DNA of 64,000 bases, counting the filler, from Candidatus Hydrogenedentota bacterium (GTDB lineage: Bacteria; JBFMHD01), in assembly GCA_040752395.1 (NCBI GenBank). It is 21 parts of 21 records of this genome, joined end to end, with 100 filler letters (N's around TTAATTAATTAA, not from the genome) between each part and the next. Parts side by side here need not be neighbours in the genome. Positions count along the whole stretch, not along the records: positions 14,670 to 31,472 come from JBFMHD010000034.1; 20 more parts are not named here. One strand, given 5' to 3'. Position 1 is the first letter of the stretch, and the number at the start of each line of letters is the position of its first letter. Below the pieces are notes generated by a model that did not search any database, had not been told where the DNA came from, and saw only the letters and a program-made list of their open reading frames with translations. The position numbers were made by a program, and so were the translations under genes. Of this stretch, positions 1 to 59,591 are shown piece by piece.

Positions 1-213
1 TATGAAAAGAGTCGTGAGTCGCAAGTCGTGAGTCAAAACAGGACTCGAGACTCAAGACTCAAGACTTTTCAGGAGGCTTTTGGCTTCGGGCTCCAGCCGG
101 CTGTAGTCCGTAGCCTGTAGCCTGTAACCTGTCCTGATACCTCTCACTTCTTCCGTTATCTTGCTTCTTGCTTCTACTTGATATTATTATAGTTACAAAG
201 TTTTTCAGAGGAG
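1..213 (+). repeat. Composite intergenic repeat, right part (GAGTC hairpin, GGCT/AGCC hairpin, TCTTGCT tract, TTTTTCAGAGGAG end)
   Basis: Near-identical to copies at 3414-3612, 28441-28785, 46025-46330 and 52290-52575. Confidence 0.97.
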
Positions 214-3413: not shown

Positions 3414-3612
3414 CTCCTCTGAAAAACATTGTAACTATAATAATATCAAGTAGAAACAAGAAGCAAGATAACGGAAGAAGTGAGAGGTATCAGGACGGGC
3501 TACAGGCTACGGGCTACGGACTACAGCCGGCTGGAGCCCGAAGCCCGGAGCCTGCTGAAAAGTCTTGAGTCCTGAGTCCTGTTTTGACTCACGACTTGCG
3601 ACTCTTTGACTC
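3414..3612 (-). repeat. Composite intergenic repeat copy
   Basis: Reverse complement of the modules at 1-213. Confidence 0.96.
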
Positions 3613-3828: not shown

Positions 3829-5284
3829 CATGAGCGTCAACTTAAAATAAGTTTTTGAGTAAAATTTTTTCTGTCGGTTCGTTTGTCATACTTACAGTAG
3901 TAAATAATTTGCGGTAATAGTTTTCTGATGTTATGTTCAAAAAACAAATCAATATTATCAGCAATAAATTGACATAGTTTGTAGAGACTAATAGAGCCGT
4001 CTTTAATTTTTGCAGTTGCGGTCAATACATTAATGTAAGTATGCACTTGAAAGAGCAGTATAAATATCAGCATCATATAAATAATGGCTTCAGTTCGTTC
4101 TTTAGTTAAAGAGCATCCTCTGGGAATAAGTCTTTGAATATGAAAATTGCTTTTCCAGCATTTGAAAATAATTTCTATTCTCCATCGTAACTGATAAATT
4201 TGCGCTATCTGAAGTGGACTAAATGTTTCTTGATCTTCTGTTGTTATAAATAAGAGGTAATCCAACATCTGATAATACTCTTTGCTGTGATTCAAGCGTT
4301 TATCTCTATTAAGTTTGGCTGCTCTTCTTTTTAGATTAGCTTTTTCTTCCGGTAATCTTAAAACAACTAATCTGACCTTCACTTTTTTCTTTTCACCAAT
4401 CAAAACCCATTGGTCAAACTTTCCTGTGGTTGATTTGAGTTGCTTAAGCAAATTTATTTGTTTACCTGTTTTACAATCATAAATGTTTATGCCATAGCGT
4501 AAACGGCTAATAAATAGAACATTATTTTCACTTAGTTTTTCGAGACTATCAAGTGTAAAATATCCCAAATCGCGTAAGACCAAGTCTTCTGATGTGGCAA
4601 TAGAGAGAATATCTTTGGCTTTTGATTGATCGTTATCTGTATAAGGCGTTATTTCAAAATAAACGAAGTTATCTGCAATTAAATCATATATGGCTTGTAT
4701 TTTCAATTGTGATTTTTTTTCACCACCACTTACATTACCGGGAAAACACCAACTCAACCATGCCGGCAATGTTATTACTGTGCTGTCTTGAACTAATATT
4801 CGTTTGATTTTCTTTGACAGCTTATTTTTCTTTACCTCTTTGGAAGTCTTTCTAATTTGTTGTTGTAATAGATCGGTTAAAATTAGAGTCAAAAATTTTA
4901 CAAATCGTGCATTTATTCTTTTCCATATAGCTTGCTTAGAAACAGTTTTACCGTTTATACGACAGTGTTGTCCTGCCCATAATTGAAAACTGTTACTGCC
5001 ATGCATAGCCATAAAAATAAATGCAATCAGTAATGACTTACCTGTCAATTTTTTATTTTTGCGTTGAGTAAAGTGACTGTTCTTTTCGTGTTTGTTGAAA
5101 GAAATCTTTTTGATTATTTGCTCAAAGTTGTTGTATTTTTGCTTTGGGTGATTGCGTATACTTTTGGATTTCATAAAATTCTCAGGTTTTATTTTATCTA
5201 AAAATACGCATTCCACCCCTCTTTTATCTCATTATTTTTCAATAAGTTAGCGGATGTTATCTCATAATTAAGTTGACGCCCATG
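3829..5284 (-). mobile_element. IS4-family (IS231-like) insertion sequence
   Basis: 17-bp terminal inverted repeats CATGAGCGTCAACTTAA (3829-3845) and TTAAGTTGACGCCCATG (5268-5284), 1 mismatch. Confidence 0.92.
3837..5216 (-). CDS. IS4-family DDE transposase
   Basis: QDST, RDLGYF and YQLRWRIEIIFKCWKS (YREK) motifs; ends LS-stop inside the IR. Confidence 0.95.
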   Translation of the reverse strand: MECVFLDKIKPENFMKSKSIRNHPKQKYNNFEQIIKKISFNKHEKNSHFTQRKNKKLTGKSLLIAFIFMAMHGSNSFQLWAGQHCRINGKTVSKQAIWKRINARFVKFLTLILTDLLQQQIRKTSKEVKKNKLSKKIKRILVQDSTVITLPAWLSWCFPGNVSGGEKKSQLKIQAIYDLIADNFVYFEITPYTDNDQSKAKDILSIATSEDLVLRDLGYFTLDSLEKLSENNVLFISRLRYGINIYDCKTGKQINLLKQLKSTTGKFDQWVLIGEKKKVKVRLVVLRLPEEKANLKRRAAKLNRDKRLNHSKEYYQMLDYLLFITTEDQETFSPLQIAQIYQLRWRIEIIFKCWKSNFHIQRLIPRGCSLTKERTEAIIYMMLIFILLFQVHTYINVLTATAKIKDGSISLYKLCQFIADNIDLFFEHNIRKLLPQIIYYCKYDKRTDRKNFTQKLILS

Positions 5285-7594: not shown

Positions 7595-9158
7595 GTTATG
7601 TAAAAAGTCAAGCACAAAATAGAAAAATAAAAAGTTCCTTTCGTTTTTACATTAATATATGAAAGAGATAAATCGGAATGATAAATTAATAATGATTTAT
7701 CTCTTTCCTTGTGTTGGGAAAATTTTATGTTTAAGAACAAAGTATAATTTTATTAAATATTATTCAACCTGTTATAAACAGTTCCCGATAATCACCGCAA
7801 CGAATTATCTGCGGTGTCGTGACTGCAAGAAGTAAATTAATATATAATGCGTTGCCGCAATCTGCCGAAGGCAAACTGTTATATTTTGTTGCAAGGCAAG
7901 TACAACGGTCAACACTAATTCAAAGAACAAATACCAATTAAAATTATACTAACTATATTTTATTGTACTACTGAATAAACGTATTCTTTTTCATTCTTCC
8001 AAACATAAATTATTCTACTTAAAAGTTTCTTTGCTATTCTTATTATGGCTTTTTGTTTACTCATTCTTCTTAAATAATTATTATAAGCAAGCGTTAAAGC
8101 AGGATCGTGTCTTATAGCTGTCCAAGCCGATTCTATTAACAGATAACGAAGATACCTATTACCCAGTATGCTTATTCCCAAAACATTATCTTTCTCGCCG
8201 GATGATCGCGTTGATGGGATTAAACCCAAATAACCGGCTAACTTATCTATACTCGAAAATCTTTCAATAGTAATCAGTTCTGCCAAAAGTGTTATTGCTG
8301 TAAGAAAACCTATTCCGGGTACACTTCTGAGTAACTTAATTTCTTTTTCTTTTCCCTGCTCAGTAAAATGATTTTTTATTGATTTTATTATTCGAGTTAG
8401 TCTGGTTCTTACCGTGATTAATTCTTCTATATAAATTTCTAACTGTTCTTTACCCATAGCATATTCAAAATTTAATTCTCGCAAGTGTTCTATAAATTTT
8501 CTTGACCAGTGTTTCATTTCACAATTCTCGGGTAATTTATGCCCATAAAAATTCAGATAACTCTTAATCTGGTTTTTTATTCGTGTTTGTTTTCTTACCT
8601 GCTGATATCTTAACCGACAGAGAGAACGTAGCTCTTGCTCTAATACTGTTGGAATATAAATCCCTCTAAACGAATCATTTCCCAATTCACGGGCTAATTT
8701 CCTTGAATCTACTTTATCTGTTTTCGTTAGTTTTTCTCTACTGCTGGTTGGTATTTCTGTCGGACTTACTACTTTGTTTTTAATCCCTTTTTCTGTCAGC
8801 TCTCTATGTATCCAATATCCGCTATAGCCGGCTTCATATACGCTATAATACTTACCTCCTGGATAATTTCTTTCCATATGTGAGATCAATTCTTTCGGGT
8901 CTGGATTCATTGAAAACGTTTTTAGTACCATTTTGTTACTTCTTATTGTTACCGTCCAGTTTCTTTTGTGTACGTCAATTCCTATATAAAACTGTTGATT
9001 GCTAAAGTCTAAATGCTTATTTTGTTTTTCCATAAGAGCTCCTTTGGTTTGTTTATTTAGTTTCCACTATAAACTTACGAAAGGATGCTCTTTTTTTTCT
9101 ACTATTTCCTTTACTTTCTTTTCCGTAAAATATCTGTTTTTTACTTTTTAAACATAAC
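7595..9158 (-). mobile_element. IS110/IS1111-family element with long downstream non-coding end
   Basis: Recombinase ORF; imperfect inverted ends GTTATGT..AAAAAGT (7595) and ACTTTTTAAACATAAC (9143-9158); boundaries inferred. Confidence 0.65.
7960..9033 (-). CDS. IS110-family DEDD recombinase/transposase
   Basis: YIGIDVHK, YEAG, KTDKVD, SVPGIG and SSGE motifs. Confidence 0.96.
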   Translation of the reverse strand: MEKQNKHLDFSNQQFYIGIDVHKRNWTVTIRSNKMVLKTFSMNPDPKELISHMERNYPGGKYYSVYEAGYSGYWIHRELTEKGIKNKVVSPTEIPTSSREKLTKTDKVDSRKLARELGNDSFRGIYIPTVLEQELRSLCRLRYQQVRKQTRIKNQIKSYLNFYGHKLPENCEMKHWSRKFIEHLRELNFEYAMGKEQLEIYIEELITVRTRLTRIIKSIKNHFTEQGKEKEIKLLRSVPGIGFLTAITLLAELITIERFSSIDKLAGYLGLIPSTRSSGEKDNVLGISILGNRYLRYLLIESAWTAIRHDPALTLAYNNYLRRMSKQKAIIRIAKKLLSRIIYVWKNEKEYVYSVVQ

Positions 9159-14127: not shown

Positions 14128-14569
14128 ATGAATAAAAGATATAATATAGACAAAATATTAAAAGGGATTGAAGAACTAAAAGAAAGCCAGAAGAAGACAG
14201 ATGAGCAGTTAAAGAGAACAGATGCAGAGATAGATAAACTTGCCAAGGAGGCAGATGAACGGTCAAAGAGAACAGATGATGAGATAGATAGACTTACTAA
14301 GAAGACAGATGCAGAGATAGAGAAAGTTAACAAGATGGTAGGTGATTTAACAGATGGCTGGGGTAAATTCGTAGAAGGGCTTGTTGAACCAGCTATCTGG
14401 GTGCTATTTAAAAGATTGGGTTATAAAATAAATAAGACATTACAGCGAGCGAGTTCAAATGTAAATGGTAGGAATTTAGAGATAGATATTCTTGCGATAG
14501 GTAAAAACAGGGATGGAGAAGATATAGTTTTAGTGATAGAGGTAAAAAGTAATTTAACAATAAGGGAAG
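14128..14569 (+). CDS. Coiled-coil plus PD-(D/E)XK nuclease-like protein (DUF3782-like), 3' truncated
   Basis: Repeated KTDxxI heptads, WGKFVEGLV, EIDIL...VIEVKS. Confidence 0.75.
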
Positions 14570-14669: not shown

Positions 14670-15012
14670 AGAGTCGTGAGTCAAAAAACACAAAAAATCG
14701 GGAAAAACCGGAGAAAAACGAAAAAAAACTGGACGGTTCTGGTTTTTCTTGTTTCTGCATTCCGCATTCTTACTGATACTTCTCACTTCTCACTTCTTAC
14801 TTTTCAGAGTAGGCACAAAGGCACAAAGGCACAATTGAAAATTGAAGATTGGAAATTGTAAATTGCAAAATTAACGAAAAAACAACGGAGTGAAGGAGGG
14901 CAAATAGATTTGAAATTTGCAATTTGCACTTTACAATTTACAATGGAGCGAAGCGACAAGAGGCAAGAAGCAAGAAACGAAAAACCGCCGTAGTGGCGGA
15001 AGAACACCGCCC
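14670..15012 (+). repeat. Mosaic of several tandem 7-8-mer modules
   Basis: GAGTC, CTTCTCA, GGCACAAA, AATTGNA/TGCAATT and GCAAGAA units in series. Confidence 0.85.
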
Positions 15013-27566: not shown

Positions 27567-28352
27567 CTATGAATGAGGGATTTCTAAAAAATCCGTTAAT
27601 GGAGAAGTTGGGGAAGCAAGATCGTGTTTTTTAGGTAGCCCTGATAGATAAGCGAGTCTGCCTGCATCGACTGCTTGATTAAATGCTTTTGCCAATCCTA
27701 CAGGGTCATGTGATGTTGCTATCGCTGTGTTAACAAGAACGCCGCTTGAGCCAAGTTCCATACACCGCATAGCATCTGATGGTCTACCAATACCGGCATC
27801 GATTATTACAGGTACATTTGATCTCTCAATGATTATTTTTATAAAATCCTCAGTCTGTATACCTTTATTAGTTCCGATTGGTGAGCCAAGTGGCATAACA
27901 CAAGCACAGCCAGCTTCTTCAAGCCGTTTTGCTAATACAGGGTCAGCATGTATATAAGGAAGTACAACAAAACCATCTTTAACAAGTTCTATAGAAGCCT
28001 GTAGTGTTTCAACAGGGTCAGGCATTAAATGGTAATTATCAGGATGTATCTCAAGTTTTATCCAGTTAAAACCACCTATTTCACGACATAGATGAGCGAT
28101 TCTAATAGCCTCAGATGAGGTAGTTGCACCTGAGGTATTGGGTACTACCCTGAATTTTGAGGTGTCTATGTAAGATAATATAGGATCAGACGTATCCTTA
28201 AAATTGACCCGTCTTAAAGCTACGGTAACAAAGCCAGGATTTACAGCCTCCAGGGTCTCTTTCATTACACTGCCAGATGCAAATTTGCCAGTACCTATAA
28301 ACAATCTTGAAGATAATTTACATCCAGCGATAATCAGATTGTCATCTATCAT
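27567..28352 (-). CDS. thiG: Thiazole synthase
   Basis: SRLFIGTGKF, PNTSG, WIKLE, MPLGSPIG and DAGIG; start moved to 28352 because the longer ORF runs into the repeat. Confidence 0.96.
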   Translation of the reverse strand: MIDDNLIIAGCKLSSRLFIGTGKFASGSVMKETLEAVNPGFVTVALRRVNFKDTSDPILSYIDTSKFRVVPNTSGATTSSEAIRIAHLCREIGGFNWIKLEIHPDNYHLMPDPVETLQASIELVKDGFVVLPYIHADPVLAKRLEEAGCACVMPLGSPIGTNKGIQTEDFIKIIIERSNVPVIIDAGIGRPSDAMRCMELGSSGVLVNTAIATSHDPVGLAKAFNQAVDAGRLAYLSGLPKKHDLASPTSPLTDFLEIPHS

Positions 28353-28438
28353 CTTTTGACTTCTCTCTTTAAGCGTTATAAATTCAGTTAGATAAAAGCA
28401 ACATAATTTTATTATGTCAATATAAAATCTTAGACCGT

Positions 28439-28785
28439 GGTCTCCTCTGAAAAACATTGTAACTCTAATAATATCAAGTAGAAGCAAGAAGCAAGATAAC
28501 GGAAGAAGTGAGAGGTGTCAGGACGGGCTACAGGCTACAGGCTACGGACTACAGCCGGCTGGAGCCAAAAGCCAAAAGCCTGCTGAAAAGTCTTGAGTCT
28601 TGAGTCTTGAGTCCTGTTTTGACTCACGACTTGCGACTCACGACTCTTTTCATATCATCTTTAGTTTTTCATCCTTTGTGTAGAGCGCAAAAACGCAAGA
28701 ACCCAAGAACCCAATAGTGTAGAGCGCAAACCGCGCTCATGTTGACTCCTTCGAAAAAGTTCGGAGTTCGGAGCTCGGAGCTATT
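28439..28785 (-). repeat. Full-length reference copy of the composite repeat (~310 bp plus an AACTCCG module)
   Basis: TTTTTCGAAGGAG, CATGAGCGC hairpin, TTGGGTTC tract, GAGTC hairpin, GGCT hairpin, TCTTGCT tract, TTTTTCAGAGGAGACC. Confidence 0.97.
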
Positions 28786-31316: not shown

Positions 31317-31472
31317 GGAGTCGTCATGAGCGCGGTTTGCGCTCTACACTATTTGGTTATTGGGTTATTGGGTTATTGCGTTTTTGCGTTTTTGCGCTCT
31401 ACACAAAGGATGAAAAACTAAAGATGATATGAAAAGAGTCGTGAGTCGCAAGTCGTGAGTCAAAACAGGACT
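31317..31472 (+). repeat. Composite repeat, left part (runs into contig end)
   Basis: GGAG-TCGT-CATGAGCGCGGTTTGCGCTCTACAC...GAGTC hairpin. Confidence 0.95.
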
Positions 31473-35133: not shown

Positions 35134-35140
35134 ATCATTG

Positions 35141-35950
35141 ATGAGATATTTTATTAATTTTAGATTAGTACCTTTGATCGTATTATTATTTATCCTGGGT
35201 TGTTTTGGAGGAAAGATTATTGAGCGCCGACCCGACCCTGAAATCGAACGATTAAATCGTGAAATAGATGCTCTGGAATCTGCAAGAGATGAGGAGATAA
35301 CTAATATCTCTGATGAGAGTGAAAGAAGACTTAAAATTCTCTGGAAAGAACTTGAAAGACTTAAACAAAAACATAAAGATGAATTGGGCAACAATAAAGT
35401 TTTGTATGAACAGAAACTTAAAGAACTTGAAGAAAAAATAGTAGAATTACGAAAGAAAAATCTTGACGAACTTAAACAGCTGCAGATTGAAAAAGAAGCG
35501 CTTGAAAAAGAACTCGAAAAATATGCGAAAACAGGTGATGTAACTATTTTCAAAACTGATGAAGGCATCACTGTAAGGTTCCCGGATAGAGTTTTTTTTG
35601 ATTCAGGTAAAGCAGTTATTAAACCAGAAGGCAAAGAAGTACTTGATAAAGTTATAAATGTTATAAAAAAATTCCAGGAAAGAGAGATAAGAATCGAGGG
35701 ACATACTGATAATGTCCCCATTAATACTTATTTATTTCCTTCTAACTGGGAGCTCTCTACAGGTCGCTCAGTTGTTGTCTTGAGGTATCTTGTTGAAAAA
35801 GGGGGGGTTTCACCGTTAAAAGTTTCGGCTATTGGGTATGGAGAGTATCATCCTATTACAACAAATGATACTGATGAAGGTAGAGCAAAAAACCGCCGGG
35901 TTGATATTATATTTATATCTAAACAAGGAGAAGAAGACATAAGCCAGTAA
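35141..35950 (+). CDS. OmpA/MotB-family lipoprotein with coiled coil
   Basis: ILGC lipobox, FFDSGKA, IEGHTD, SNWELS.GR and KNRRVDI. Confidence 0.92.
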   Translation: MRYFINFRLVPLIVLLFILGCFGGKIIERRPDPEIERLNREIDALESARDEEITNISDESERRLKILWKELERLKQKHKDELGNNKVLYEQKLKELEEKIVELRKKNLDELKQLQIEKEALEKELEKYAKTGDVTIFKTDEGITVRFPDRVFFDSGKAVIKPEGKEVLDKVINVIKKFQEREIRIEGHTDNVPINTYLFPSNWELSTGRSVVVLRYLVEKGGVSPLKVSAIGYGEYHPITTNDTDEGRAKNRRVDIIFISKQGEEDISQ

Positions 35951-36319: not shown

Positions 36320-36524
36320 AGAGGCACAGAGGCACAAAGTATGAAAAAGATAGGAGTTAGGAGTTCGTAATAATAGCTCCGAACTCCGAACTTCGAACTT
36401 TTTCGAAGGAGTACCCATGAGCGCGGTTTGCGCTCTACACTATTGGGTTTTTGGGTTATTGGGTTATTGCGTTATTGCGTTTTTGCGTTATCTTGCTTTC
36501 CGTTATCTTGCTTCTTGCCTCTTG
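36320..36524 (+). repeat. Repeat mosaic plus composite-repeat left end
   Basis: GGCACAGA, GGAGTT/AACTCC hairpin, TTTTTCGAAGGAG-TACC-CATGAGCGC and TTGGGTTA tract. Confidence 0.95.
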
Positions 36525-48038: not shown

Positions 48039-48213
48039 GCTCATGAGTACTCCTCTGAAAAAGTAAGAAGTGGGAAGTGAGAGGTATCATGACAGGCTAC
48101 AGGCTACGGACTACAGCCGGCTGGAGCCAAAAGCCTGAAGCCAACATATCATCTTTAGTTTTTCATCCTTTGTGTAGAGCGCAAAAGCGTTCGTGACGAC
48201 CCATCTGAAAAAG
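48039..48213 (-). repeat. Composite repeat, tandem variant
   Basis: One unit ending CTTCTTACTTTTTCAGAGGAG runs directly into the TACTCATGAGC start of another. Confidence 0.93.
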
Positions 48214-48215
48214 AG

Positions 48216-48878
48216 TTATATAATCTCTACCAAATCGCCATTATTCACATCAGCTGCGTTTGCCTCATCAGTATCAAGATGTAATTCCATTTTATGACCA
48301 TCACCTGCACGCACTACTATGTTTTCAAATAAAACCCCGCGTTTGCCGCAGACCCGGGCATTTACGATATCACCGTTCTTTAAACCAAATGCCTCGCTCT
48401 CAAGCAAAGAAAGATGTAGATGTCTTGCAGCGATTATAACACCCTCGTCAAGCTTAATCGTTTTATCATTAACATAAATAATGCAGCCACAAGAACCAGC
48501 AATATCGCCAGATAATCTAATCGGTGGTTTAATACCCAGAATAAACGAGTCTGTTTTTGATATTTCAACCTGGGTCCGGCCTCGACAGGGCCCGAGTACC
48601 CTTACATTCTGGATAAAACCTTGCGAGCCTATTAATGTAACTGTAAGTTTTGAAGCAAACTGACCCGGCTGACTCAATTCTCTTAAAACCTCAAGTTTAT
48701 AATCTTCGGACATTAGATACTTTAAATGTTCTTCTGATAGATGTAAATGTCTATTAGATATGCCTATGGGTACCAATTTTTTATCTGTGGTTCTTTTATC
48801 TTTCTCTTCTGTTTTAATTACTCCCAGACGTTTACTAACTTCTTTAACAATATTATCTATTATCTCTTTCTCATTCAT
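48216..48878 (-). CDS. pduL: Phosphate propanoyltransferase (BMC phosphotransacylase)
   Basis: PIGISNRHLHLS, LSQPGQFA, TQVEISKTD, ARHLH and HLDTDEANA; N-terminal amphipathic encapsulation-like helix. Confidence 0.95.
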   Translation of the reverse strand: MNEKEIIDNIVKEVSKRLGVIKTEEKDKRTTDKKLVPIGISNRHLHLSEEHLKYLMSEDYKLEVLRELSQPGQFASKLTVTLIGSQGFIQNVRVLGPCRGRTQVEISKTDSFILGIKPPIRLSGDIAGSCGCIIYVNDKTIKLDEGVIIAARHLHLSLLESEAFGLKNGDIVNARVCGKRGVLFENIVVRAGDGHKMELHLDTDEANAADVNNGDLVEII

Positions 48879-48934
48879 CTTTAATCCTGTTTTTATACTG
48901 TACAAGCGAAATTTCCTAATCTATCCTCTTTTTT

Positions 48935-50994: not shown

Positions 50995-52320
50995 GTGGAA
51001 TGTAGTATTGAAAAAGACAGACAATGTAAAGTTACTATTAATGTATCTTTGCCTTATGAAGAATATGCTGAAACATATAAGAAATCTGTCCAGAATGTGA
51101 AGAAAAATGCGCGGATTGATGGTTTCAGAAAGGGTAAAATACCTGAAAATATTTTACTAAAAAATTTTAGCTATGCTATCAGAGAAGACTTCCTTGATAA
51201 CATCTTTTCTTATATCATTGATAAAAGTATCTATCAGCAAAACTATAAAATCGTATCACCCCCTGTTATTTCTGATGTAAAATTTGATCCTGGTCAAACG
51301 CTGGAATGTAAGATATTAATCGAGACTAATCCAGAGGTCGAAATTAACGATTATAAAAAATTGCCTTTAACTAAATACCTGTATGAAATCTCTGACAAAC
51401 AAGTTGATGAATATATCGAACCAATCCTCGAAAGGTTCGTAACTTATATCCCTGTTAAAATCCGTCATTCTAAAGAAACCGATAGAATAAAGGTTGATCT
51501 TGAGGTGATCGATGAAGATAACAATAAAATCGTTGAGTTATCAGGTGAGAACCACATAATTACTCTGAATAAAAGCGGTGGTTTCTTTGATAAACTTATT
51601 GATTCTCTGATTGATGTACAACCTGGCGATATAAAAATTGTGCATTTGAGATTCCCACCTGATTACCCAAGGAAAGAGTACCAGAATAAAATGGTAACAA
51701 TAAAAGCTTATATCAAAGAGATAGAAGAGAAACAATTGCCACAGCTTAATGATGAACTTGTAAAAAAAATAAGTAACAAAAACAATGTTGAAGAATACAG
51801 AAAAAGTGTAAGAGAAATACTTTTAAAAACAGCTGAATTACAAATAAAACAGAGTCTCAAATCCCAGCTTACAGATTTATTAATAAAAAAGTTTGGTGAC
51901 TTTGAAGTACCTGAATCCTCAATTATTAGAAGAAAAGAATATCTACTCAACCGATTTAAAAAACATTTAGAAGAAGAAGAAAAAATTAGTTTTACTGACT
52001 ATCTGCAGAAGATAAATAAGACAAAGCAAGAGTTCGAAGATAACATTTTTAAAGAAGCAGAAAAACTTGTCAAACTTGACTATATATATTATAATATTAG
52101 TATAAAAGAGAATATTGTTGCATCTGAAGAGGATGTAAAAAAAGAGTTTTCACGATTAAGTATGTCTTATAATATACCTGTAGAAAAAATAAGTAAACGA
52201 TGTGAAAATACAGGCCTTATTGATGATTTAAAATTTGAGCTACTCAAAGATAAAGTAATAAATCTTCTTATTGAAAACGCCGATATTAAAGAGTCGAGAG
52301 TCGAGAGTCGTGAGTCGTGA
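50995..52320 (+). CDS. tig: Trigger factor
   Basis: IDGFRKGK ribosome-binding motif, FPPDYP, and LPQLNDE. Confidence 0.93.
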   Translation: MECSIEKDRQCKVTINVSLPYEEYAETYKKSVQNVKKNARIDGFRKGKIPENILLKNFSYAIREDFLDNIFSYIIDKSIYQQNYKIVSPPVISDVKFDPGQTLECKILIETNPEVEINDYKKLPLTKYLYEISDKQVDEYIEPILERFVTYIPVKIRHSKETDRIKVDLEVIDEDNNKIVELSGENHIITLNKSGGFFDKLIDSLIDVQPGDIKIVHLRFPPDYPRKEYQNKMVTIKAYIKEIEEKQLPQLNDELVKKISNKNNVEEYRKSVREILLKTAELQIKQSLKSQLTDLLIKKFGDFEVPESSIIRRKEYLLNRFKKHLEEEEKISFTDYLQKINKTKQEFEDNIFKEAEKLVKLDYIYYNISIKENIVASEEDVKKEFSRLSMSYNIPVEKISKRCENTGLIDDLKFELLKDKVINLLIENADIKESRVESRES

Positions 52321-52581: not shown

Positions 52582-52881
52582 ATGGAAGCATTAGGGATGA
52601 TAGAGACACGTGGTCTGGTGCCTTGCATTGAGGCTGCTGATGCTATGGTTAAAGCAGCGAAGGTGGTGCTTGTTAGTTATGAAAAGGTGGGGACAGGGCT
52701 TGTTACTGCCTTGATCCGTGGTGACGTAGCTGCTTGCAAAGCCGCAACAGATGCCGGCGCCGCTGCTGCTGAACGTGTTGGCGAATTGGTAAGTGTGCAC
52801 GTTATCCCAAGACCACACGAAGACGTTTTAAAAGTTTTCCCGGTTTCTTTACCTGAGGAAAAATCAGGAAAGGCTAGATAA
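52582..52881 (+). CDS. Bacterial microcompartment hexamer shell protein (EutM/PduA-like)
   Basis: [26 protein letters not shown] and VHVIPRPH. Confidence 0.96.
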
Positions 52882-52903
52882 TTCTTAAAAAAAGGATAAA
52901 TAA

Positions 52904-53197
52904 ATGAAAATAGGTAAAGTAGTTGGCACTGTTGTTGCTACAAGAAAAACTGAAAAACTTATTGGATATAAATTTCTCCTCGTTGAGATACTTAAAGCTG
53001 ACTCTACACCAACCGGAACTCACGTCGTTGCGGTAGATGTTGTTGATGCAGGTGCGGGTGAAGTGATACTTCTTGTTGAGGGCAGTTCAGCTCGTATGGC
53101 TATGCCTGTTGATGGCCTTCCCGTTGATGCTGCTATCTGTGCTGTGATTGACAGTATCAGAATAGGTGATAAAGAGATTAAATTTCAAAAAGATTGA
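52904..53197 (+). CDS. Microcompartment pentamer vertex protein (EutN/CcmL)
   Basis: GKVVGTVVATRK, VAVD.V.AG.GE, GSSAR and PVDAAI..VID. Confidence 0.95.
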   Translation: MKIGKVVGTVVATRKTEKLIGYKFLLVEILKADSTPTGTHVVAVDVVDAGAGEVILLVEGSSARMAMPVDGLPVDAAICAVIDSIRIGDKEIKFQKD

Positions 53198-56507: not shown

Positions 56508-56755
56508 CTCTTACATTCACCCCGCACCTGCCCCCCCCCCAGCCTCTCTCCTCATACCAAAAAATAACCAGATTGAAAATGATGTTTTTAAAAGAACCCT
56601 TTGTTACACTACTAATCTGGTATGGTGTAAAACGATTTAGTTATTATAATAATTTTAATACTATTTAAAATTTTAATCAAGCAAAAATGAACTGAAATTG
56701 TAATGCCTCAGTCCACTACGGGTCTTGTGACCCTCACTACATGTCTTCATAAACT

Positions 56756-56932
56756 TCGAAAAAGTTCGGAGTTCGGAGCTCGGATCTATTATTACTAACT
56801 CCTAACTCCTAACTCCTATGACAAGTTAAAAGTAAAAAGTCAAAAGTTAAAAGTAAAGAAAGTGAAAATATACACTTCCTTGCCGTATCTTTCAATCTTT
56901 TAATCTTTTAATCTTTCAATCTTTGAATCTTT
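56756..56932 (-). repeat. Inverted copy of the 53192-53341 mosaic ending TTTTTCGAAG
   Basis: Shared core GATACGGCAAGGAAGTGTATATTTTC. Confidence 0.92.
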
Positions 56933-57716: not shown

Positions 57717-57983
57717 TATAGTGTTCTCAATTTAAAAACGAAAACGAAAACTGGGACGGTTCTGTTTTTTTACTAATAATCATTAATACACCTCTTTTCA
57801 GTGATTCTACTTCTTTAACTAATTTCTGAATCGTAATTGGTTTACTCATAAAAAATAGTCCTCCGGTCTGTCTTGTCTTGCTTTTTGCTTCTTGATATCC
57901 CCTCAGTCTACTACAGGTCTTGTGACCCTCACTACATTGATATATTATATTGAAATTACGAAAAATAAAATCTGAAGCATAAG

Positions 57984-59591
57984 TTATGAGCTTATTGTTG
58001 GCGTTACAGCTGGTTGTTGTTTAATGAGCTTGCGTCGATCCATAAATAAAACAACCGGTGCAGCGATGAAGATAGAGGAATACGTGCCGGTAATGATGCC
58101 GATAATAAAAACAAGTGCGAAATTTTTTGTAGTTATTGGTCCGAAAAAATAAAGGGCTACTGCAGCAAATAAGGTAGTAAGTGAGGTAATCAGTGTTCTT
58201 GATAAAGTCTGTGAGATACTGAGATTAATAATTTCATCCATCGGTGCACGTTTACGTAGCCCTAAATTCTCTCTGATTCTGTCGTAAACCACTATGGTAT
58301 CATTCAGCGAATAACCTATTAAAGCCATTATCGAGGCTATTAGTGGGATATCAAATTCTTTTTCAAGGATGCTGACAAGTCCGGCAGTTAAAGTTATATC
58401 GTGTATAAGCGATAAGATTGCGCCGAGTGCAAAACTTAAATCAAATCTTACAACTATATACACGCCCATAACTAAGAAACTGAGTAAAATAATAGCCAGT
58501 GCTTGTTTTTTGAGCGTAGCGCCGATACTCGGACCAACGGTTTCATTACTACCTAAAACAAAATTGCCGAAAACAAAATTATCTTTGATATCTTTTATAC
58601 ATATCGGTCGGACGTCTTCAAGTTCCTCGATCTCTTGCATACCGCTATATAAACCGCCGATATTCGTTTTATGGATTATGAGTTTTCTTGCGGTCTGGAG
58701 ATTTAAATCTTTTAATATATCATAAAACTCTTTATAAATCCTGTCAGCCTCAGTATATTTCAAATATTCATCGAGTGTCATTCTATCTTCTAATGCTTCA
58801 TTAATGTTTAATTTAAGTTCTTCGGTCTGGAAGACTTTCTTCGTAGTAAACCGAAGCTGTAATCTATCAATACTCACTCCTTTTAGTTCTTCAAACCCGA
58901 GCAATTCATCAAGTTTTTCTATCCTTTTTTGATTTGTTATAATGTTCTGGAGATTATCAATTAGCCGTCGTGCCTGGAGTGAAGAGATAATCTCATTAAT
59001 CTCGTCGCTTGAGTTAATATAATTAATATCAAATTTATCAAGAGGTATGTCTTTAGCGAAGATAGTATGCATAATATTAAACAAGAGATGGCTTAACATA
59101 TTAGTATAAATACTTTTAGCGGTCTCTTCAAGTTGAACCAGCGGTGTTTTATTTATGTCAGGTAGAATCTGGTTAGGAAGATACGAATATCTTTTACTGA
59201 ATTCAAATACCACGTCTTGCGGTACTTTTTTAAAGATATCTTTCACGTCCTGCTCTGATATTATCCTTCCTTCTTCGCGTAAATCTCCTATTTCCTCGAT
59301 TGCATCATCGATATAAGAGAGACCTTTAATCTTAATAAAAAGTTCTTTATTATCACGAGACGTCTGTATATCACCTGAGATATTCTTTTTTAATAGTTCG
59401 TTTCTTATAATAGCTATTTCATTCACACTAACAGCTTTATCCAGCAGATATGTTATCTGTACGCCGCCTGTAAAATCAATACCGAGCTCAAGTCCTTTAT
59501 GTAAAACGATTGAGATGAGTCCTGCTAAAATAATTATACCTGATATAACAAAATTAATCTTGAATAATCGAGTAAAATTAAAGATCCGCAT
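57984..59591 (-). CDS. secF: Protein translocase subunit SecF with a large periplasmic insertion
   Basis: LGIDFTGG, ETVGPSIG, LIHD, GYSLNDTIVVYDRIRE and TLSRTLITS. Confidence 0.95.
   Translation of the reverse strand: MRIFNFTRLFKINFVISGIIILAGLISIVLHKGLELGIDFTGGVQITYLLDKAVSVNEIAIIRNELLKKNISGDIQTSRDNKELFIKIKGLSYIDDAIEEIGDLREEGRIISEQDVKDIFKKVPQDVVFEFSKRYSYLPNQILPDINKTPLVQLEETAKSIYTNMLSHLLFNIMHTIFAKDIPLDKFDINYINSSDEINEIISSLQARRLIDNLQNIITNQKRIEKLDELLGFEELKGVSIDRLQLRFTTKKVFQTEELKLNINEALEDRMTLDEYLKYTEADRIYKEFYDILKDLNLQTARKLIIHKTNIGGLYSGMQEIEELEDVRPICIKDIKDNFVFGNFVLGSNETVGPSIGATLKKQALAIILLSFLVMGVYIVVRFDLSFALGAILSLIHDITLTAGLVSILEKEFDIPLIASIMALIGYSLNDTIVVYDRIRENLGLRKRAPMDEIINLSISQTLSRTLITSLTTLFAAVALYFFGPITTKNFALVFIIGIITGTYSSIFIAAPVVLFMDRRKLIKQQPAVTPTISS

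Follow-up and report, generated by a model that had tools for sequence, protein, structure and literature searches.

The stretch from 28442 to 28785 of the window, a 64,000-nt concatenation of contigs from a fragmented assembly, is occupied on the minus strand by a composite copy of a dispersed repeat. The source genome (G000; 2.84 Mb, 349 contigs, 34.8% GC, 93.8% complete) comes from a deep-branching, uncultured bacterium and is the only genome in its phylum; overlaps of 126 to 127 nt between its contigs showed it to be a k=127 assembly of mixed strains. The initial annotation had placed the copy at 28439-28785, and the module order that it gave, which reads on the minus strand, was recovered as follows:

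28442..28785, minus: focal composite copy (half of P, then T, A, B, C, D, E, F, G, H and T)
28442..28454, minus: fixed 3' terminus TTTTTCAGAGGAG, in most copies the host Shine-Dalgarno sequence (SD), at which host sequence resumes
28455..28480, minus: module H, an AT-rich, non-periodic tail with about 400 copies
28480..28499, minus: module G, (TCTTGCT)n, its unit being that of the arms of an intact four-helix-bundle gene on G000:C347
28500..28523, minus: module F, pyrimidine-rich, with TCTCACT-type units
28524..28583, minus: module E, mirror 7-mer arrays flanking a central palindrome
28589..28647, minus: module D, a (GAGTCGT)n/(GACTCAA)n hairpin (z -4.5)
28648..28679, minus: module C, a non-periodic linker between short TATGAAAA-like repeats, at which chains skip module C
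28680..28716, minus: module B, an 8-mer array flanked by two 11-nt direct repeats
28717..28740, minus: module A, a GC hairpin (z -4.2) whose opposite strand reads GTAG and then a palindrome (REP-like)
28746..28758, minus: internal T motif TTTTTCGAAGGAG, the head-to-tail joint between units
28759..28785, minus: right half of module P, (CTCCGAA)n
36343-36410: full module P hairpin

The focal copy is atypical in that no start codon lies within 13 nt of its end. Among 227 module D cores in the genome, 207 were identical, and most module H copies carried the extended -10-like sequence TGATAT(T/C)AT. The view that the modules are tandem heptamers held for part of them, other arrays being built of 8-mers. 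Likewise, modules D, A, and P folded strongly compared with shuffled sequences (z -4.2 to -4.5) and are hairpins as claimed, but module E folded weakly (z -1.0) and the last 80 nt of the repeat were less folded than shuffles (z +1.9). A short internal ORF, of 23 codons in the focal copy and 10 to 51 elsewhere, differs between copies in frame and length and was dismissed.

Full or partial copies were present on both strands at all the positions initially proposed:

1..213, plus: copy at contig start; ATG of a glycosyltransferase gene 9 nt past its end
3414..3612, minus: copy; ATG of a 41-codon ORF 6 nt past its end; second allele on G000:C148
12922..13013, plus: copy; TTG of a heptose epimerase gene 11 nt past its end; second allele on G000:C199
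15826..16103, plus: copy; glgA ATG 5 nt past its end
31317..31472, plus: 5' part of a copy, cut by the contig end
31573..31708, plus: copy facing the clpX 3' end and serving no real gene; an allele with other modules on G000:C321
35000..35133, plus: copy; start of a MotB/OmpA-family gene 4 nt past its end
36320..36524, plus: partial copy (K, P, T, A, B, G), cut by the contig end
44815..44973, minus: copy without modules B, D, F, and G, cut by the contig end
46025..46298, minus: copy; ATG of a GAF-domain gene 6 nt past its end
48039..48189, minus: copy chained head to tail at AGGAG, cut by the contig end
52288..52575, plus: two chained units that make up the entire gap between tig and a bacterial microcompartment (BMC) shell gene, whose ATG lies 6 nt past their end

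The trigger factor (tig) ORF at window 50995-52320 receives its last codons and its stop from the repeat. Open frames in module H make mechanical ORF calls run host genes into the repeat, as at window 27567-28487 and 35138-35950. Bacterial microcompartment genes (PduL-like, EutM-like, and CcmL/EutN-like) lie at window 48216-48905 and 52582-53197, and a 54-nt tandem repeat lies at window 14191-14311 within an ORF that had no NCBIfam match. The largest "repeat family" in the repeat listing of the window was discarded, being merely the N/linker spacer between concatenated contigs.

Genome-wide, 923 high-copy intervals covered 125.6 kb, or 4.4% of G000 (6.1% with a finer mask), and the core 16-mers of the repeat occurred 200 to 330 times each. 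The many additional copies that had been predicted thus exist: repeat intervals contain 196 of the 698 contig ends and, by a strict 12-mer test, 9 of the 42 piece ends in the window, where about ten had been estimated. Being dispersed and devoid of spacers, the copies showed no CRISPR features, in line with the initial annotation. The modules follow one another in a directed cycle, T-A-B-C-D-E-F-G-H-T, that also has shortcuts and side entries, and 275 contig-internal chains ending in the terminal motif followed 137 different module paths, an approximate count since the tokeniser breaks chains at gaps of >45 nt. Dropping and swapping of whole modules were thus observed as described, as was head-to-tail chaining of units (at 48039 and 52288). 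Branch points between modules fell on common stretches of 6 to 11 nt, at which modules are skipped or swapped. Copies ranged from ~35 to 480 nt (5th to 95th percentile, 50 to 335 nt), and minimal H-T copies without upstream modules made up 26 of the 275 chains. Length and divergence showed no overall trend (rho -0.06, n 251), the 31 shortest copies being more diverged. Other dispersed repeats join the network at low frequency, namely, a second GTAG-type palindrome, an IS-end-like element of ~100 nt, and 7/8-mer arrays of other units (window 56700-56760, 57840-57990, and 14900-14990; G000:C42, C80, and C288).

Two properties missed by the initial annotation are the polarity of the repeat and its constant 3' end, which is the Shine-Dalgarno sequence of the downstream gene. 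On the 3' side the end is fixed: after the T-run, CAGAGGAG followed in 283 of 404 H modules and near variants in most of the others, while 5' ends are scattered anywhere along the chain. We considered the 348 ends that are followed by unique DNA and have at least 200 nt left, and called an SD when a start codon opening at least 50 codons came 3 to 13 nt later. By this rule, 264 of the 348 ends are the SD of a host ORF. A start codon was found by the same rule at 6.6% of random places, at 15% of 704 non-repeat GAGGAG sites, and at 165 of 554 (30%) non-coding, non-repeat AGGAG sites, against which the repeat ends gave an odds ratio of 7.4 (p 9e-43). Counted from the genes, 348 of the 1067 SD-bearing ORFs, drawn from 2324 crude ORF calls, had the repeat directly upstream of the SD. 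The next gene shared the strand of the copy in 287 of 314 cases (91%).

The bases flanking the joint belong to the host on its downstream side. The two bases after AGGAG were G and T in 49% and 45%, respectively, of 289 copies, compared with 38% and 45% at 139 native sites, unlike the repeat's own continuation, which starts with T or A. No host ORF behind a repeat was found fused to the spacer and ATG that belong to the repeat itself. AGAGGAG at the joint is common to paralogues whether or not they carry the repeat, and in a small gene family whose products start with MEWVI, one member has a native AGAGGAG where others carry the repeat. This family has six copies (G000:C90, C291, C3, C298, C79, and C69) with different upstream contexts, three of which end in repeat modules. 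Two of the four tRNA genes that begin with GGAG were fused to the repeat at that GGAG, compared with 0 of 38 other tRNA genes (p=0.007), indicating that a sequence match, and not translation, sets the joint. At the left end, 50 of 170 copies began within 10 nt of the upstream stop codon, which in several copies belongs to the repeat match. The SD is therefore the junction between repeat and host sequence, and the host must use the last bases of the repeat as ribosome-binding site (RBS).

Copies also lie inside operons, 110 of them genome-wide. Sixteen operon-internal loci were picked by eye and 15 were fetched; by Pfam, 13 of the 15 had canonical operon neighbours on both sides of the repeat (nusG-rplK, rplM-rpsI, rpsB-tsf, ssb-rpsR, rplR-rpsE, ruvA-ruvB, gatA-gatB, gyrB-gyrA, atpB-atpE, prs-rplY, yidC-jag, flgF-flgG, and pilB-pilC). 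The gene orders of these 13 pairs are canonical. At the rplV-rpsC locus, the rpsC portion was too short to be scored by Pfam, and a locus guessed to be miaA-hfq turned out to be proC-hfq. The rplM-rpsI gap measures 227 nt here, compared with a median of 18.5 nt at the 74 measurable of 80 distant loci, of which 59 had gaps of 40 nt or less, while the 11 gaps of >60 nt look like N-terminal extensions of S9; the nearest rplM homologues are 49 to 61% identical and are usable only as a spacer reference. At G000:C13:6643-8307, the gap before a gene that by eye is rpoC-like contains a short remnant of an ORF similar to a nucleotidyltransferase antitoxin, which a repeat copy truncates.

These loci bear on the possibility, allowed for in the initial annotation, that the module mosaics are mis-assemblies. 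An assembly as fragmented as this one, made from mixed strains and with so many contig ends in repeats, could have turned a simpler repeat into chimeras, and one join does look chimeric: that of C107 to rpsC disagrees with C333, where the conserved order rplV-rpsC is kept, and may be an artefact. However, gene order was intact around the operon spacers, from which it follows that most mosaics are not mis-assemblies, with the C107 join as a possible exception. In addition, all 44 copies of 30 to 100 nt were distinct, and these copies are informative because copy and flanks fit in one 127-mer; several allele differences likewise fell within one 127-mer of unique flank. That the mosaics are largely assembly chimeras is thus extremely unlikely.

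Differences between coexisting strains showed how the repeat changes. Near repeats we counted 122 two-copy forks, 36 of them contig-tip forks, some of which are one locus seen from both sides. Some alleles differed in unit number. In C251/C61, module B is present in one allele and absent from the other, between its 11-nt direct repeats; in C136/C98, one allele has an extra whole unit bounded by two AGGAG ends; and in C122/C324, a patch is swapped, the two variants occurring 190 and 32 times elsewhere. C303/C314 differ by an inversion, C51/C298 by a 5' joint at 7 shared bases within an ORF, and C97/C119 by a 3-base joint in module H. One allele of C97/C119 lacks most of a gene through two successive joints at 3 to 9 shared bases, one of which ends inside H. 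Short-match deletions occur in unique DNA too. The repeat is thus still being reshuffled. Within module H, linkage between neighbouring sites up to 15 nt apart was strong (V 0.2 to 0.6), while between modules it was absent (F-H, C-F, C-H, and A-C; p 0.25 to 1.0), with the restriction that the samples are small (n 27 to 122) and that assembler chimeras can blur linkage. Taken together, the skips and swaps at branch points, the allele swaps, and the unlinked modules point to patchwork copying and not nesting. Of the initial proposal, the recombinational, non-coding family therefore stands, whereas the nested insertion of hairpin units is not supported.

With modest confidence, we favor the reading that the repeat is a selfish non-coding network, spread and reshuffled by ectopic gene conversion or template switching, which would need only short homology and would resolve at the SD. 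Small repeat families, a REP-like hairpin and the arms of four-helix-bundle cassettes without their gene among them, would first have colonised gene junctions. A strand starting in a shared piece, or in a few matching bases, would then copy another locus. On the downstream side it would have to rejoin by the SD, since copying beyond this point, the last sequence that nearly every gene has in common with the donor, would destroy the start codon. On the upstream side it could rejoin at any short match and would survive mostly at or after the stop codon. Repeated rounds would homogenise spacers to one tail ending in AGAGGAG and leave the 5' ends variable and the modules mixed. The analysis shows the polarity, the position of the SD, the insertion into conserved operons, the allele differences at short repeats, and the missing linkage; how the copying works chemically and what part host recombination plays in it are what we infer here. 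RecA, MutS, and RuvAB are present in G000. No match to SbcD was obtained, while 13 of 14 control genomes have one, and SbcC gave only weak P-loop hits, so that hairpins would be spared. As with all the machinery absences reported here, this rests on a ~94% complete assembly and is not proof.

Several observations weigh against conversion. An RNA- or protein-guided step could underlie the 91% sense orientation and the 7-fold enrichment at SDs; among the alleles compared, no clean pair of an empty and a filled form of one SD was seen; the minimal H-T copies need two short-homology joints or a later deletion; MutS should restrain exchange between diverged copies; and the C107-rpsC join is in conflict with conserved gene order, while C35/C285, C146/C309, and C208/C293 have different genes behind the same flank.

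The initial annotation had raised a link to four-helix-bundle genes, and five such loci (PF05635), two of them intact, were found in G000, flanked by D, G, K, and B units plus one heptamer unused in the chain. A PF05635 gene sits between D arms on C284, between G arms on C347, and between K arms on C92, module D being the empty version of the arms on G000:C284, whose gene is truncated. For module B, only a left arm was seen, at a PF05635 gene lying at a contig end, and no gene-filled version of modules E, P, F, N, or L was found in G000. Judged by these sequences, several modules are gene-less arms of heptamer- or octamer-flanked PF05635 cassettes. Related PF05635 genes elsewhere had inverted arms in 43 of 77 measurable cases (80 fetched), compared with 0 in distal-flank controls. 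A GxxExxY gene, also considered initially, was not found in G000 as either GxxExxY or PDDEXK_3.

One alternative is protein-assisted retro-homing, in which an RNA ending in AGAGGAG would be reverse-transcribed from the target SD and truncated at its 5' side at short matches, with the help of four-helix-bundle proteins. We take these proteins to be fold relatives of the accessory protein Avd of diversity-generating retroelements (DGRs). The fixed 3' end and variable, short-homology 5' end have the geometry of DGR homing, as outlined in parts of PMC3240598; the predominant sense orientation fits as well, as do the two intact PF05635 genes, whose arms match or are similar. Set against this, reverse transcriptase (RVT_1, PF00078) gave 0 matches in the 93.8% complete assembly, and rare changes in the repeat had no adenine bias (A 0.59%, T 0.49%, C 0.84%, and G 1.19% per base). 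In addition, a profile of 24 four-helix-bundle proteins recovered only XCC0516 and 2RLD from the PDB, and not Avd, and five other genomes with the G heptamer held simple arrays without a common SD tail (25 loci viewed, several overlapping). We regard retro-homing as rather unlikely. Similarly doubtful is a SINE-like or homing system, so far undescribed, in which a four-helix-bundle protein, together with either a polymerase of the host or a reverse transcriptase missing from the assembly, would drive AGGAG-anchored copy-and-replace; such a system would have rewritten the leaders of about one-third of the SD-bearing genes, ribosomal operons included, and would also make strain-level gene deletions and rearrangements.

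Movement by a transposase, as a MITE or REP/BIME family with nested insertions, would account for the high copy number, the hairpins, and the chains of unit length with their joints at AGGAG. REPs with a RAYT are the basis of BIMEs. The GTAG tag followed by a short palindrome was found in module A only, on the opposite strand, and by this tag and palindrome module A looks like a GTAG-REP. Yet the repeat has no terminal inverted repeats, no constant length, and no constant 5' end; as for a target-site duplication, a unit lying between two AGGAG ends was seen in one allele pair. Between modules, variants showed no linkage, and RAYT/Y1 transposase (PF01797) gave 0 matches in the 93.8% complete genome, although RAYTs can be lost. 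IS110 and IS4 transposase genes lie in the window at 7960-9033 and 3837-5216, each single-copy on its own contig of 1.7 to 1.8 kb; a link to them was rejected, as they have no sequence in common with the repeat. We consider transposition highly unlikely, and short-homology conversion continues to be the reading that we favor.

We also considered whether the repeat benefits the host as a portable expression cassette in the manner of the Neisseria repeat REP2, with H-T giving promoter and RBS and placing hundreds of genes under common control. The precedent is REP2 itself (in the sections of PMC3184786 that deal with it), and the idea would fit the position of the repeat upstream of about one-third of the SD-bearing ORFs. 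Module H, moreover, carries the -10-like motif, and two tRNA-Pro leaders (G000:C5:8806-8882, minus, and C304:3564-3639, plus) match its first 22 nt almost exactly; a third shows a partial match. H may accordingly be a captured tRNA promoter region, or the tRNA-Pro leaders may be partial conversions. Both positional tests of promoter donation were, however, negative, as neither the repeat (34/249 versus 85/582, p=0.75) nor the -10-like motif (22/33 versus 110/188, p=0.44) was enriched at divergent gene starts. A consensus scan did not yield the H motif, 96 of 292 tails lacked it, and copies lie mid-operon and before tRNAs. A promoter role of this motif is thus not supported. The repeat SD was predicted to be harder to open than native SDs (4.3 versus 2.4 kcal/mol, n 204 versus 102), and being more paired in silico, it was rejected as a better RBS. 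A regulatory benefit of the repeat is unsupported, and the adaptive cassette seems to us quite unlikely.

The repeat itself was confined to its own genome as far as we searched. None of 30 other genomes matched it, pattern scans found nothing in metagenomes or viral contigs, and a scan of GTDB with the own genome left out had no repeat among the matches listed. No match was obtained among plasmids and phages, and none in Rfam at or above the gathering threshold, a second search giving two chance-level hits only; the initial annotation had likewise recognised no named family. In the literature searched outside subscription journals, we found no description of an SD-terminated heptamer mosaic chain.

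The repeat explains both the fragmented assembly of a single-genome phylum and the over-extended start codons produced by gene callers. How REP2-like and common bacterial heptamer repeats originate and spread is presented as an open question in parts of PMC3184786 and PMC4692102. G000 is an extreme case in motion, in which ~1/3 of the SD-bearing genes, core translation operons included, take their RBS from the end of a repeat that is tied to four-helix-bundle cassettes of unknown function. It offers a testable rule, namely, that short-homology conversion resolving at the SD would let junk DNA take over translation starts without a transposase.

Among known systems, the Neisseria REP2 and Borrelia IR-A/IR-B repeats are likewise intergenic, lack terminal inverted repeats, have internal stem-loops, and lie directly upstream of unrelated ORFs, carrying their RBS, according to the passages on them in PMC3184786. 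In the same passages, REP2 measures 120 to 150 bp, has 23 to 26 copies, and includes promoter, RBS, and ATG, and the mechanism of its spread is given as unknown. In contrast, the repeat described here carries no ATG after the SD at which it ends, has some 350 SD-linked copies, varies in length from ~35 to 480 nt, consists of 7/8-mer modules, and sits inside operons. The PF05635 (S23p/IVS protein) cassettes, of which the Coxiella IVS has heptamers preceding its ORF (part of PMC4990558), use the same units as modules D, G, K, and B; here, however, four or more types of arm have been joined with unrelated pieces, giving a single polar chain whose constant tail bears the SD. BIME, NIME, and pneumococcal BOX elements are likewise modular intergenic composites whose module number varies between strains, but BOX has terminal inverted repeats and target duplications (parts of PMC3049150), and neither BOX nor BIME is known to end at a host SD. 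The TAACTGA heptamers of Beggiatoaceae also form sense-oriented arrays just upstream of starts, often of essential genes, but these are single-unit arrays, mostly without an SD (about 10% have one), as opposed to a multi-module, SD-ended repeat (sections of PMC4679880). DGR retrohoming is similarly a copy-and-replace process, in which the 3' joint is fixed and the 5' joint lies at short homology, the latter needing at least 8 bp of identity and possibly arising by template switching (passages of PMC3240598), while here there is no reverse transcriptase found, no template/variable repeat pair, and no adenine bias. The repeat thus works partly like Neisseria REP2 and the BIME/NIME mosaics and belongs to neither, and it is an extreme, still active variant of the RBS-bearing mosaic intergenic repeats.
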